Positions 11,901 to 48,965 of a DNA stretch of 64,000 bases are shown here, piece after piece (the first letter of the stretch is position 1; every line of letters begins with the position of its first letter). The translations under genes and the position numbers were made by a program. This DNA is from an uncultured Bacteroidota bacterium. GTDB taxonomy: Bacteria; Bacteroidota; Bacteroidia; Cytophagales; Cyclobacteriaceae. The DNA is taken from the NCBI GenBank assembly GCA_963837415.1, contig CAWING010000012.1, positions 532,417 through 596,416 on the forward strand, written 5' to 3'. Below the pieces are notes generated by a model. That model had not been told where the DNA came from. It worked only from the letters and a program-made list of their open reading frames with translations, and searched no databases.

Positions 11901-13997
11901 TTATCCTAGTCTTATAAAAATCCTACTTCCTTTTTCGGCTCGTCTGCCTGGATACAATGATTGTTTTAACACTCTGCCTTTGCCCTCATAGGAAACTCTC
12001 AATCCTGAATTCTCAAGCAAATAGATTGCATCACGAAATGTCATCCCCAGAACATCGGGAACTATATCTTTACCCGTTATACTTTTTTTCCATTTCACAC
12101 CGCCACCTCCAACATGCGAAGATCGAACCCATTCTTCTTCTGTCTGGGAATGATTTGATATACCCAGCTCGTTACATACCATGGTCAGTTCGTGCTGATT
12201 ACCCGCGCGAATGACAGGGAAGACACCCTGCACAGCAAATTTTTTAACATCCATGGGCTGATGAAGATTAATGTCGCGGGCATATATATTATCAGCCATC
12301 TCTTTAAAGACTGGCGCAGCAACACTACTGCCATATTGGTACCATCCGCGTGGATTTTTAATGAGCACGATAGCGCTATACTTAGGGTCATGAGCCGGAA
12401 AATATCCCACAAAAGATGTGATATACTTTTTTGTATATCGTCCCTTATCCAAAATTTGAGCGGTACCTGTTTTTCCAGCAATTCGATAATGTGTACCCTT
12501 GATATTCTTTGCGGTTCCATTTTCAACTACACCCTCCAATAGTAACTTAAGCTTTTCAAGGGTTTTAGTGGAGCAGATTTTTTTATTGATTACCTCCGTT
12601 GTAAAAATATCTTCTTCCTCATCAGCGCGTTTTACCGATCTGAACAAATACAGGTTTGATCATTTCACCATCATTGGCAACCGCATTATACAACGCCAAT
12701 GTATGCAATGGAGTAATTTCGAAACCGTAACCATAAGCCATCCATGGCAGACTGATACCGCTCCATCCCTTTTGACCTGGTCGTTTGATTTTTGGAATAG
12801 GCTCGCCAACAATCTGAAGCCCTAACGGTTGGGATAACTTTAATCGATCGATATAATCAACAAACTTCTGAGGCCGCAAGCCGAAATGTTTATCGACCAG
12901 CTTCGCCATGGCCACATTTGATGAACGCTCAAAAGCTTCTTGAACCGATAACACTCCCATACCCACCTTCCTCATGATCGCGTACCGTTTTATTATAGAA
13001 ATCAAATTCACCATTTCCAGTATCGATGCTATCGCTTAGTTCTACCGGGCTATCTTCCAGTAGGGCAATCATCGTAACTAGTTTAAATGTTGACCCTGGC
13101 TCAAATAACTGTCCAGCCGCAAAATTGAATTTCTCATGAAAATTACCATGACCGTCAGAGCTCAAATTTGAAATGGCTTTGATGGCACCTGTCTTGACTT
13201 CCATCACGGCAATAAGTCCGTCCTCAGCATCGTGTTGCGTCATCGCTTTATACAAAGCAGTTTCTGCGACATCCTGAAGGTTAATATCCAATGTGGTTTG
13301 AACATCAAGACCATTAACAGCCTTGACATTGTTTGCATCAAATATGGGTTTCCAAACGCCGCCAGAAATTTTCTGATAATAAGCGTACCCGTCTTGCCCG
13401 CCTAGCTGCTTATTGAAACTGTACTCAAGTCCAACACCTTTTTCATTCTCGTTTACAAATCCGATTGTTCTGCGACTTAAGTTGGAAAACGGGCGATAGC
13501 GCACATCTACCTTTTCAAATATCGATCCGCCACGGAACCTGCCTTCACGGAAAATCGGCCAAGTCATCATTATCTTTTTATCCTGATAATCAATTTGCTT
13601 GCGATTAAGAATGATATATTGTTTACCAGCACTCCGCGCATCAAGGAGGATTCGTTTATAGTCGGTTTTCGATTTGTCTTTAAAAAATTTTGACAGGTTA
13701 AGCGCGAGGGAATCCACACCCTGTTTAAAGATATCGTCTTTGGGAAGTGTAGCATCAAAAGCTACTTTATAAAAAGGCAACGAAGTAGCTAGCAGGCTTC
13801 CATTGTCAGAATAAATATTACCTCGCGTCGCTTTTACTCGTTTTGTAGTCAAACGAAATACGTTCGCCCATTGCTGCCCATTTATCTCCCTCAACAAATT
13901 GAATATGCGCTATCTTAACAACTATTGCGACAGCAAAAAGAACCGCAAACAAAAATGCGACCCGAACTCTGAGTAATATGGATTTTTTAATATTCAC
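11901..13997 (-). CDS. ftsI: Penicillin-binding protein 3 / FtsI with C-terminal PASTA domain, split by about 3 frameshifts
   Basis: RGNIYS, EPGSTFK (SxxK), SSN (SxN), KTG motifs; PASTA-like VPDVLGM; GTG start overlaps the ftsL stop. Confidence 0.9.
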
Positions 13998-14375
13998 CTT
14001 CCTTCTACTTCTATTTTATAAGGGGGGGTTAAACTTTCTTTCAATTCAAGGGCTTTTACTTTTTTTGCTACCTCAGACTGTTTGCTTGCAAACATGAGAT
14101 CTGATTTTAACGTGGTATAGTCAGCTCGAAGGTCTTCCACTTCAGCCTGGATGCTATTGATCTTGCGCACGGTCTTTTCGCCGTAGTGTGTATTGCTGAT
14201 GTATATTAATCCCACCACCATAACAAAGAGAATTTTAGGCAGATACTTCACCGGGAAACCTTCTTCAAAATAATTTTCAAGCTTCAATCTTTTCTCAATG
14301 CCTGAAAAAATGGCTGCGGGTAAAGCCTTTGCTATTTTTGGTTTTCGTTTTGAGTTTAAACTTGTTCTCTGTCAT
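13994..14375 (-). CDS. ftsL: FtsL-like cell division protein, one frameshift near the 5' end
   Basis: TM plus coiled coil (YISNTH...VEDLRADY...SKQSEV); between rsmH and ftsI; ATG at 14375. Confidence 0.8.
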
Positions 14376-14381
14376 GACTTG

Positions 14382-14470
14382 TATCAGTTATCCGTTATCG
14401 TTATCAGTTATCCGTTATCGTTATCCGTTCATTTGTATTTGTATTACCATTAACGGATAACTGATAACGG
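14382..14470. repeat. Heptamer-periodic inverted repeat, GTTATC family
   Basis: CGTTATCAGTTATCCGTTA (14399-14417) is the perfect reverse complement of 14451-14469; 20-bp tandem duplication at 14382-14421. Confidence 0.9.
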
Positions 14471-15402
14471 CTATATCTTGTCCGCTATGCGCAACTTGGC
14501 GCTTCGCGCTCTGGTATTTTTTGCTATCTCCTCTTCTGTCGCTTCTATCGGTTTTCGATTCACAGCTTTAAAAGGTTTGATCTCATTACCAAAAAAATCT
14601 TTCTCTACTTCGCCAAATACTTTGCCTTTGTTGATGTAGTTCTTTACCATTCTATCTTCAAGCGAATGGTACGACATCACCACCAACCTTCCGTCTCTCA
14701 TAATACACTTCGCCACATTGGTGCAAAAAATCTTCAAGAGCTTTCATTTCTTCATTGACTTCTATGCGAAGCGCTTGAAACACCTGGGCGAAATATTTAT
14801 TCTCCTTACCTCTGGGAGCGATAGGTTGAAGCGTTGCTTTTAATCCTCTGTTCTCGCAAAAGTTTTTACCTTTCTTTGTTGAGTCATCAATCTGGCAGCA
14901 GTTTTTGCATTCTTCAATTCACCATACATGCCAAAGATTTTATGGAGTTGCTCTTCACTGTATTCATTCAATATCCTAGCTGCCGTAAGCGGTATCGTCT
15001 TTATCCATGCGCATATCCAACGGGCCATCAAATCGCGTGGAGAAACCACGTTCCGGAGAATCAATCTGGTGCGATGAAATACCTAGATCCGCTAGAATGC
15101 CGTTAACCTCAGTAATACCATGCAACTTCAAGTACCGTTTCATGTACATGAAATTGGTCTGACAAAATGTAAAAGAACGATTCTTGATTTTTTCTGCTTC
15201 CCTCTTAGCATCCTCATCCTGATCGAAAGCCAGCAGTCGTCCGTCTTTCAGGTTCTCAAGAATTTTTAAACTATGCCCTCCTCCTCCAAACGTTGCATCC
15301 ACATAAGTACCTCCCGGCCTGAATCTCTAACGCTTCAATACATTCGTTCAGCATCACAGGCTGATGATAGTTTCGAGATTCGAGCTCGGAGCTTTGAGTC
15401 AC
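14471..15402 (-). CDS. rsmH: 16S rRNA (cytosine1402-N4)-methyltransferase RsmH, split by frameshifts
   Basis: YHQPVMLNE, DATFGGGGHS, DLGISSHQ, PLDMRM, FQALRIEVN, SYHSLEDR, RARSAKLR; candidate GTG start at 15402. Confidence 0.9.
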
Positions 15403-15799
15403 GATTTTTCAACAGCTTTGATGAAACTTTGTAACATCTTTTGCTCTTCGTCAATGTGTTTTAGAAGTGTTCCAATTAAATCCGAATTACCAAACCTTAA
15501 TAATTCAATAATTAAAACCTGAGTCTCCAATTCATGTGTCGATCAAAGTGAGGTTTCGAGATAATTTTTATAATCCTTCCTACTAGTCTTAGCACTGCCT
15601 TCTGCAATATTTGACGGTATCGAAACTGCACATCTTGTTATTTGACTTCGCAACCCATATTTTTCTTCATCAGGAAGCTGTTTTGCTAATTTGTACGCCG
15701 CCACTACGATTTCTATTCCCTTTTGCCATACTTTCAATTTTTTATAATTTTTCATACATAGTTATCAACTCATAGCTCACAACTCATAACTCGTAACTT
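15368..15799 (-). mobile_element. Putative cassette: four-helix-bundle gene enclosed by inverted 5 x 7-bp GAGNT repeat arms
   Basis: Left arm TAGTTTC GAGATTC GAGCTCG GAGCTTT GAGTCAC (15368-15402); right arm TCAACTC ATAGCTC ACAACTC ATAACTC GTAACTT (15765-15799); interrupts the normally adjacent mraZ-rsmH pair. Mobility is inferred. Confidence 0.6.
15399..15755 (-). CDS. Four helix bundle protein (TIGR02436 / 23S rRNA-IVS protein family), 118 codons with an in-frame TGA at codon 71
   Basis: KLKVWQK...LPDEEKYGLRSQITRCAVSIPSNIAEG, then SL*STHELETQ...EEQKMLQSFIKAVEKS in the same frame; the TGA sits where the family has Gly (GS..E.ETQ). Confidence 0.88.
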
Positions 15800-15801
15800 A
15801 A

Positions 15802-16245
15802 TTATTCATTAAGGTGCTTTTCTGCCAGTTTTGAAAACTCACGTTGGTCCGTAATCAAGTGCTTCTCATACACAGTAGGATTCCAGACAACTACTTTGTT
15901 ACCCATACCGATCAATACCACATCTTTCTCAAGCTGAGCATAGGCGAGCATATTTTTCTGAATTAGAAATCGGCCATTTAAATCCAACTCAACGGAAGCA
16001 ACACTGGAAAAAAAGTTAAGCTGCAGCTGACGATACTCTTCATTAAACTCACTAAGACCAGAAACTTTTGAGAGTACTTTTTTGAACTCCAGTTGCGGAT
16101 AAATAATAAGGCATGGTTCAAACCCTCTTCGGATGATAAGCTCGTTGTTTCCCTCTTCAGGCAACTGGCTTTTAATCCGCGCAGGAAGAACGAGCCTTCC
16201 TTTAGGATCTAATTTGCTCTCATATTTTCCGGTGAAAAAGGTCAT
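15802..16245 (-). CDS. mraZ: Division/cell wall cluster transcriptional repressor MraZ
   Basis: Two DxxGR repeats (DPKGR, DLNGR); first gene of the dcw cluster. Confidence 0.95.
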   Translation of the reverse strand: MTFFTGKYESKLDPKGRLVLPARIKSQLPEEGNNELIIRRGFEPCLIIYPQLEFKKVLSKVSGLSEFNEEYRQLQLNFFSSVASVELDLNGRFLIQKNMLAYAQLEKDVVLIGMGNKVVVWNPTVYEKHLITDQREFSKLAEKHLNE

Positions 16246-16276: not shown

Positions 16277-16350
16277 CAAACTTATATAATTTTGAACCAC
16301 TTTCAACCACTTTCATCCACTTTTTTACATTTTATCCCCATTATTTACCA
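16277..16350 (-). promoter_or_regulatory. dcw promoter with 10-bp-spaced GTGG MraZ boxes
   Basis: -7 element TAAGTTTG (16277-16284), TTG 19 nt upstream; GTGGATGAAA GTGGTTGAAA GTGGTTCAAA repeats at 16291-16320 plus degenerate units to 16350. Confidence 0.75.
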
Positions 16351-27882: not shown

Positions 27883-27960
27883 GCTTCAAGCCTCAAGCTT
27901 TAAGCTGCAAGTTGTTCGATTCAATGAAAGGCTTGCAGCTTGCTGCTTGGAGCTTGTAGC
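27883..27960. repeat. Heptamer-periodic inverted repeat, AAGCT family
   Basis: GCTTCAA GCCTCAA GCTTTAA GCTGCAA versus TTGCAGC TTGCTGC TTGGAGC TTGTAGC. Confidence 0.88.
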
Positions 27961-41585: not shown

Positions 41586-41722
41586 AGTTAATCGTTATCA
41601 GTTATCAGTTATCAGTTATCTGTTATCTGTTAATGGTTAATCGTTTAATAGTGATACATCTAAAGCTCACACCCTCTCCATGATTAATCGGTAACAATTA
41701 CCTATTAACGGATAACGGTTAG
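41586..41722. repeat. Heptamer-periodic inverted repeat, GTTATC family (9 left units, 6 right units)
   Basis: AGTTAAT CGTTATC AGTTATC x3 TGTTATC TGTTAAT GGTTAAT CGTTTAA versus TGATTAA TCGGTAA CAATTAC CTATTAA CGGATAA CGGTTAG. Confidence 0.9.
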
Positions 41723-42941: not shown

Positions 42942-42945
42942 TGAC

Positions 42946-43100
42946 CGTTATCTGTTATCCGTTAATAGTTATCCGTTAGACGCAGGCAGGGAATTGGGTT
43001 TGGAACCCCTCTAAAAATTAATCGGTATTCGTATTTGGTTGTGAGTTTTAAAAAATAGCACGTATTCACAATTAACGGATAGCGATTAACGGACCACGGA
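42946..43100. repeat. Heptamer-periodic inverted repeat, GTTATC family, with an 88-nt spacer
   Basis: CGTTATC TGTTATC CGTTAAT AGTTATC CGTTAGA versus CAATTAA CGGATAG CGATTAA CGGACCA. Confidence 0.85.
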
Positions 43101-47270: not shown

Positions 47271-47340
47271 CCGTTAATACTATCCGTGAATCGTCCTTGA
47301 GAATGTGGATTAACCATTAACGGATAACGATTAACGGTTA
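47271..47340. repeat. Heptamer inverted repeat, GTTATC family
   Basis: CCGTTAA TACTAT CCGTGAA versus GGATTAA CCATTAA CGGATAA CGATTAA CGGTTA; includes the TAA stop of the acyltransferase. Confidence 0.8.
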
Positions 47341-48888: not shown

Positions 48889-48965
48889 GTTAAGAGTTTC
48901 GAGTTTAAAGTTTCGAATGATCAAGCAGTCACAACTCTCAACTTTAAACTCGAAACTAGAAACTA
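48887..48965. repeat. Heptamer inverted repeat, GAGTT family, without cargo
   Basis: AGTTTCGAGTTTAAAGTT (48895-48912) is the perfect reverse complement of 48940-48957; the outer units overlap the sixA and hslU stop codons. Confidence 0.92.

Follow-up and report, generated by a model that had tools for sequence, protein, structure and literature searches.

Why should a small gene bracketed by two inverted arrays of heptamers stand between mraZ and rsmH, two genes that are normally adjacent? The question is raised by a locus in a 64,000-nt stretch of DNA (the window, in whose coordinates all positions are given here), in which a cassette read on the minus strand has mraZ, rsmH, ftsL and ftsI as neighbours (Table 1). 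Its upstream arm begins 2 nt past the mraZ stop codon (15802-15804, minus strand), runs from 15799 to 15765 through the units AAGTTAC, GAGTTAT, GAGTTGT, GAGCTAT and GAGTTGA, and has its final base 9 nt 5' of the cassette ATG (at 15755, minus strand). The downstream arm reads GTGACTC, AAAGCTC, CGAGCTC, GAATCTC and GAAACTA from 15402 to 15368; these NNARCTC units are the reverse complement of the RAGYTNN units upstream, and the arm codes for the only in-frame start of rsmH, a GTG, and for the first 11 residues of RsmH. The cassette gene ends in a TGA (15399-15401) that shares bases with this GTG (GTGA). The answer favoured here, with moderate confidence, is that the locus is one instance of a cassette with a wide distribution, in which inverted arrays of 4-5 heptamers enclose a PF05635 gene and which would be inserted in the sense direction in an operon spacer, transcribed with mraZ and rsmH, and enclosed by a stem like that of the intervening sequences (IVS) of 23S rRNA, its heptamers setting a register for the protein.

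Table 1. Features of the mraZ-rsmH region, in window coordinates.
Feature	Position	Strand	Description	Evidence
mraZ	15802..16245	-	intact upstream neighbour, same transcription direction	PF02381, 1.2e-23
Upstream arm	15765..15799	-	five RAGYTNN heptamers	TRF period 7, 4.6 copies; pairing tests
Cassette gene	15399..15755	-	PF05635/TIGR02436 gene, predicted four-helix bundle, 118 codons plus stop	profile matches, homology to PDB 2GSC
In-frame TGA	15543..15545	-	codon 71	Gly (GS motif) in 5/7 aligned relatives
Downstream arm	15368..15402	-	five NNARCTC heptamers	translation and pairing tests
rsmH	14471..15402	-	downstream neighbour, at least five frame pieces in this assembly	reading frames, related-strain contigs
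Gene-less heptamer hairpin	14382..14470	.	GTTATCN / TAACGGA family	rsmH-ftsL spacer; one of the genome's 159

The two arms are complementary at the DNA level at 23 of 31 positions, a score equalled by 8 of 5000 shuffles, and the corresponding RNA duplex has an energy of -32.2 kcal/mol (shuffles, -14.3 +/- 3.5; none of 2000 as low), being predicted to consist of 4-6-bp helices with small internal loops every 7 nt. In a fold of the whole locus (466 nt) the arms are paired in the minimum-energy and centroid structures alike. A first-pass annotation of this DNA had the ORF looped out by a long stem with a heptamer period, and complementarity, duplex energy and whole-locus fold all bear out that anatomy; in the 12-mer pairing that it offered as an example, 11 of the 12 positions pair. 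The terminal inverted repeats make a stem that encloses the ORF, as in an ORF-bearing IVS. A search of Rfam gave no match to the cassette, and the neighbouring hairpin (14375-14481) gave only sub-threshold miRNA-like matches. The cassette was also considered as a terminator or as a unit with its own sigma-70 promoter, both of which are unsupported, since no terminator-like or strong promoter-like site lies inside it on its strand.

The product, with the in-frame TGA read through, matches PF05635 (1.9e-33; 115.3 bits, cut-off 33.8; covering positions 1-105 of the 106 in the profile) and TIGR02436 (2.3e-31; 108.3 bits, cut-off 24), so that the family assignment made from the letters alone is upheld by both models. 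In an eight-sequence alignment N49, I50, E52, G53, S72 and E75 are invariant, and the conserved NIAEG and GS..E motifs are present. The nearest solved relative is XCC0516 (PDB 2GSC; 3.7e-21 over residues 4-103), 2RLD is also related, and homology to these structures, whose entries contain five chains each, would suggest a four-helix-bundle fold and a homo-oligomer. The TGA at codon 71 would be a nonsense mutation or else an error of the assembly; its recoding as glycine was rejected because the gene's own stop is TGA and the in-frame stops of other copies mix TAA, TAG and TGA. The assembly (14 contigs, 79.6% marker completeness) breaks rsmH and ftsI (12622-13897) each into several reading frames. 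Comparison with contigs of related strains from soil-metagenome DNA (four runs; the segment 15405-15740, which includes the TGA, lies outside their coverage) shows that the rsmH frame is broken where the sequences differ by 1-nt indels, at 14705, 14843/14845, 14998 and 15315/15316, and the rsmH frameshifts are probably assembly errors or private to the strain. This match, together with the completeness and the contig number, suggests indel errors in ftsI and rsmH rather than real pseudogenes.

Comparison of the cassette gene with its closest relative (L036, 85% identical) gives a dN/dS ratio of 0.055, and other close pairs give values of about 0.05-0.13, four pairs with the copy L078 being left out of these figures on account of a stop at codon 10; by these ratios the protein of intact copies is evidently under strong purifying selection. 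At 72 of 76 loci the gene is read in the same direction as the genes on either side. In-frame stops are frequent among the copies of the family, which may be kept while useful and decay afterwards. The suggestion that the gene may simply be cargo has become unlikely, because intact copies combine purifying selection with an almost constant sense orientation. A recent transfer, for which the 89% identity of L078 to copies in other orders might have spoken, was discarded as an artefact because its early stop left 9 codons for comparison.

The history of the site can be followed within the genus, where an intact orthologue with arms occupies the mraZ-rsmH spacer in G002, G006, G007 and G017, and decayed remnants lie there in G005, G013 and G018. 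The cassette is absent from a heptamer-free spacer in G003, G004, G008, G012 and G016, and mraZ and rsmH are adjacent in G001, G010 and G011, the last of which retains two heptamers. The two genes stand 8-24 nt apart in cassette-free relatives, with no hairpin between them, and are adjacent in other families of the order. These comparisons agree with the earlier statement that mraZ and rsmH normally adjoin each other, and they dispose of the objection that the gene might be a fixed member of the dcw cluster. Judging from the compared genomes, the cassette is a resident of the mraZ-rsmH site in many Cytophagales that has repeatedly decayed or been lost. This makes the site a useful one, with intact, decayed and empty states in a single genus and an arm that supplies the start of a housekeeping gene.

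The same arrangement extends well beyond this site. Species-level genomes across Bacteroidota supplied 78 P0001-like loci, of which 30 are situated between mraZ and rsmH and the others occupy different sites, for example upstream of hemE, cysS, hisI or dinB (as read from the downstream sequence). The period-7 score in the 110-nt flanks of the 78 loci averages 14.6/21 on both sides, whereas periods 4-6 and 8-11 average about 9/21; both flanks pass at 25 loci and at least one flank at 57, compared with none and 8 (one flank) of 51 control ORFs taken from the same loci. The L007-like subfamily, sampled across the order, is armed too, and at least one flank passes in 25 of 40 further copies from the genus. 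Heptamer arms, mostly inverted, also accompany about 7 of 10 copies on cyanobacterial plasmids, which are located between cas6 and cas4, cmr2 and cmr3, or two ribonucleotide reductase genes. The package of gene plus arms is common for this family in Bacteroidota and cyanobacteria. Cassette protein identity follows MraZ identity weakly (r = 0.19, Mantel 1/2000), a correlation that would establish neither strict co-descent nor swapping of cassettes. The PF05635 family is reportedly listed among CRISPR-associated genes, and the placement of L148, L149 and L154, plasmid copies with cas6 and cas4, or cmr2 and cmr3, as neighbours, probably explains that listing.

Eight PF05635 genes are present in the genome, and inverted arms can be seen by eye at all eight, each with its own unit (RAGYT, AAGCTTT, GAGTTTC, GTCSACR, GAGTGTT, GAAATTT, GTACGAR and GGTATAG). 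Under a numeric criterion (p7 of at least 15 on both flanks), 6 of the 8 have period-7 arrays on both sides, as do 19 of 4678 crude genes (0.4%); the first-pass annotation had held that armless paralogues would speak against its reading, and the flanks of all paralogues proved to carry arms. Tandem arrays of period 7 are the most numerous in the genome (676, against 149 of period 6 and 324 of period 8; 409, 28 and 90, respectively, with at least 3.5 copies), and an independent scan gave 95 of period 7, 30 of period 8 and 0-3 for each other period, the merged total being about 750 heptamer arrays with 177 canonical units. There are 184 inverted pairs of arrays, 159 of which have loops shorter than 150 nt and constitute gene-less hairpins. 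These are intergenic in 156 cases, between tandem, convergent and divergent genes alike. Their loops are unique in sequence, and a search of 90 of them with the family HMM gave no gene remnants beyond random controls. The order of the variable units is mirrored between the arms of gene-less hairpins (42 versus 2, p = 1e-10) in an exhaustive unit-permutation test, which replaced an earlier, poorly designed held-out register test on half of the blocks that had given no signal. TAACTGA/TAACGGA arrays are plentiful in this genome, and GTTATCN, GGTAATC and GATTKTA are large array families that have no cognate gene in it.

Gene-less hairpins are 20 times commoner than armed genes, which would be natural if the hairpin worked independently of the protein, its arms being an mRNA stabiliser, a processing site or a translational-coupling device for rsmH, with the ORF tolerated in the loop. 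The overlap of the downstream arm with the rsmH start and the lack of terminator-like or strong promoter-like sites on the cassette strand fit such a role as well. It would nevertheless leave unexplained why PF05635 genes are so often doubly armed when other genes hardly ever are, why the ORF is under purifying selection and shows an orientation bias, and why the period is strictly 7 nt; moreover, in cassette-free relatives mraZ and rsmH adjoin each other and no hairpin separates them. A hairpin of this kind is regarded as quite improbable.

Complementarity between arms scores 13.4 within a locus, 8.9 between loci and 7.1 after shuffling. The base beside the AGYT core has its complement in the opposite arm at 35 of 42 classifiable loci, and the G and A classes of this core-adjacent position split 19/1/0/11 (Fisher 1.4e-7, for loci that are non-independent). 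The arms of the window belong to the YGAG:CTCR class and those of its genus relatives to CAAG:CTTG; the soil strains, at about 95% identity in the flanking genes, are of the other arm class and possess an ordinary rsmH ATG just past the arm. The complementarity is real and is preserved while the unit changes. Polymerase slippage in AT-rich spacers, which would make heptamer arrays as a by-product devoid of function, could draw on the over-representation of heptamers among bacterial repeats, for which slippage has been proposed as the cause (PMC4692102), and on the quick change of copy number and units between strains. Slippage, though, yields direct arrays rather than mirrored arms with matching unit order, does not yield covariation between arms about 400 nt apart, and does not account for an enrichment around one protein family in two phyla, with Coxiella added by the literature. 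This reading is already disfavoured and is judged very improbable indeed; neither slippage by itself nor a hairpin that works without the protein accounts well for the data.

The mismatches within arms comprise 101 G:U and 108 A:C pairs and 250 transversions, and since G:U does not exceed A:C, selection on the sense RNA is not evident; complementarity may be preserved through the DNA itself or through repeated copying of one arm from the other. The arm core is specific to the subfamily, AGCY being found in 57 of 78 P0001-like loci and in 1 of 30 L007-like loci, and the units of the L007 subfamily vary widely. Gene and array type are also associated. Arrays of four AGTTTNN units occur in 14 of 40 genomes of the genus and a paralogue with AGTTT arms (at least 51% identity) in 12, of which 10 have both, 2 the paralogue only and 4 the arrays only, with 24 genomes lacking either (Fisher 6e-5, a significance that the kinship of the genomes overstates). 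Genomes with AGTTT-type arrays have 8.9 PF05635 genes on average, against 4.0 in those without. Where the AGTTT paralogue has arms of the GTTC type (G176, G181, G189 and G001), the dispersed arrays are of the GTTC type too, and overall arm type and dispersed-array type are concordant in 9 cases, discordant in 2 (G010 and G017) and mixed in 1. Elsewhere in the genus there are genes armed with GTTATCC and GGTAATC units; the dependence of arrays on a gene is not strict, because arrays of both kinds are numerous here and no such gene is present. The earlier proposal that the protein acts in trans on the empty copies thus has correlative backing from these comparisons of genomes.

REPIN-RAYT systems consist of a gene lying between inverted repeat elements, with gene-less doublets of these elements dispersed in intergenic regions by the hundreds and a separate repeat family for each gene lineage. 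The main rival to the IVS-like cassette is a comparable partnership at the DNA level, in which a PF05635 lineage would maintain or spread its own hairpin family, the armed gene being the master copy and the arms acting as DNA hairpins or cruciforms. As in REPIN-RAYT, inverted elements stand on both sides of the gene, and their family also supplies hundreds of hairpins scattered over intergenic regions; the co-occurrence of AGTTT arrays with their paralogue, the matching change to GTTC, the cognate genes of other array families elsewhere in the genus, the difference in arms between strains with nearly identical flanking genes, and the absent G:U bias, which fits a DNA-level symmetry, are all in line with it. 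The flanked gene is, however, a PF05635 member and not a Y1 (RAYT) transposase, and its product, 118 aa long and presumably a helical bundle, contains no known motif of a nuclease or transposase; instead of conserved palindromes, the repeats form periodic arrays whose loops are unique. Since the loops of the gene-less hairpins are unique and contain no gene remnants, these hairpins are not copies of one element, and no target-site duplication was seen. The relatedness of the compared genomes inflates the significance of the co-occurrence, and three large array families here have no cognate gene. The sense-orientation bias points to expression from the host mRNA, although it does not separate action on DNA from action on RNA. 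On balance a DNA-level partnership is possible, though rather unlikely. A MITE was rejected, the hairpin loops being unique, with no shared internal sequence, and the arm ends showing no target-site duplication.

Returning to the IVS-like cassette, the closest published counterpart is the 23S IVS of Coxiella burnetii, which contains an ORF of the same family, a 28-bp stem and tandem heptamers, is cut by RNase III at the first repeat and has been demonstrated to be excised (Warrier et al. 2016, PMC4990558); the analogy drawn in the first-pass annotation agrees with this case. As in the ORF-bearing IVS of Coxiella burnetii (helix 45) and Leptospira, with their S23p ORF, a same-family ORF lies inside the loop of an inverted-repeat stem. 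GACAGAT heptamers in 2-4 tandem copies are found just upstream of the IVS ORF (PMC4990558), the cassette being likewise flanked by heptamers, and in both elements copy number differs between strains and the ORF is often decaying. Unlike an IVS, which is inserted in a 23S rRNA helix (25 or 45), the cassette occupies the mRNA spacer that separates two protein genes; both of its arms are composed wholly of heptamers, and its protein is under purifying selection. Excision by RNase III has been demonstrated for the IVS and would be a prediction for the cassette. By this analogy, the cassette is an IVS-like element sitting in an mRNA.

Kinship to Avd, the four-helix-bundle accessory protein of diversity-generating retroelements, had also been put forward. 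A distant relationship holds: the cassette protein, like Avd, would be a small four-helix bundle, its sequence is remotely similar (NF033474, E 1.2e-4), and the five chains in 2GSC and 2RLD are consistent with the pentamer reported for Avd. Identity with Avd does not, as the cassette protein scores 22.4 bits against a cut-off of 80 in the equivalog model, the whole genome gives no RVT_1 (reverse transcriptase) match above cut-off, and no template/variable repeat pair is present. The dispersed arrays, for their part, resemble the partnerless intergenic arrays described for GGGAATC in Xanthomonas (70-75 convergent pairs) and GGGGAYT in Nostoc (PMC4692102), and for TAACTGA in Beggiatoaceae, cyanobacteria and Bacteroidetes (PMC4679880), being tandem 7-mers that are nearly all intergenic, often form convergent stem-loop pairs and vary fast between close relatives. 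Neither report names a partner protein family, and G-quadruplexes or the binding of S1, Csp or CsrA have been proposed (PMC4692102, PMC4679880). Unlike those arrays, the ones described here bracket PF05635 genes, and the literature search retrieved no paper linking the PF05635 family to heptamer arrays in general. Xanthomonas campestris, of the genus with GGGAATC arrays, also encodes a PF05635 protein, the XCC0516 of PDB 2GSC.

A mechanism can be sketched from these likenesses. In the polycistronic RNA the arms would close a stem of about 35 bp, made of 4-6-bp helices broken every 7 nt, with the ORF looped out; this stem would be a likely substrate of RNase III, whose gene is present in the genome, as in the ORF-bearing 23S rRNA IVS. 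The stem would hide the rsmH start, the GTG lying within the arm, so that translation of rsmH would need either completion of the cassette ORF through the GTGA overlap or cleavage. The 7-nt period, of which RNase III has no need, would most simply be the binding register of the protein; the two related crystal entries contain five chains each, and arms peak at about 4 units (range 3-5.5). The protein may recognise, in every unit of the arms around its own gene, a core of 4-5 nt, and probably does the same in gene-less arrays of that family. Several observations weigh against this preferred reading: an internal loop every 7 nt would make the stem a poorer RNase III substrate than IVS stems, the wide variation of units in the L007 subfamily leaves sequence-specific reading unproven, and both the missing G:U excess and the large array families here that have no cognate gene sit uneasily with it.

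The PF05635 family is large and has been without a function since its discovery in rRNA intervening sequences, and heptamer arrays have been a puzzle of their own in the genomes of cyanobacteria, Xanthomonas, Beggiatoa and Bacteroidetes; the gene-array association gives both one testable hypothesis, that a five-chain helical-bundle protein reads 7-nt repeats. In its strongest form, which is tentative and which we would sooner doubt than accept, PF05635 proteins would be ring-shaped readers of tandem heptamers, with a lineage-specific core of 4-5 nt, each encoded in one hairpin and acting in trans on hundreds of gene-less ones. If true, this idea would cover together the 23S intervening sequences, the TAACTGA arrays, the Xanthomonas GGGAATC arrays and the cyanobacterial STRR, which we take to belong among the partnerless intergenic heptamer arrays, and it would amount to a gene-repeat partnership comparable to REPIN-RAYT, minus the transposase. 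This genome, with 8 differently armed paralogues and about 750 arrays, is a convenient test bed. New in the present analysis are the genus series at mraZ-rsmH, the covariation of the arms, the orientation bias with the dN/dS values, the finding that G:U mismatches are not favoured, and the way in which arrays accompany their cognate paralogue.

Some further arrangements were observed in passing. The paralogue L006 (G000:C12:429300-430100) has three arms, a hairpin (arm, 52-nt loop, arm) directly upstream and a third arm past the gene, and its first arm could pair with either of the other two. At L001 and L002 (G000 C13:966800-967800 and C2:243100-244000) ordinary genes, by eye from the translation a SCO1/SenC-like gene and nuoE, have arrays of a single unit family on either side, so that adjacent spacers can share an array family although no cassette gene separates them. 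Other spacers of the window contain more heptamer arrays and hairpins (27883-27960, 41586-41639, 42945-42978, 47311-47337 and 48894-48965), with units of the GCTTCAA/GCTTGCA, GTTATCA, CCGTTAT and GAGTTTC/AAACTAG families. Upstream of mraZ, at 16291-16323, there are three direct repeats with a 10-bp period (GTGGNTGAAA on the strand of the gene), which presumably correspond to the usual MraZ operator repeats of dcw promoters. The copy L152, on a plasmid of the high-GC organism Gemmatirosa kalamazoonensis, has no inverted heptamers and is accompanied instead by octamer arrays (CTCCTGCC) in direct orientation, and a secondary excess of period-8 arrays is seen in the present genome too.
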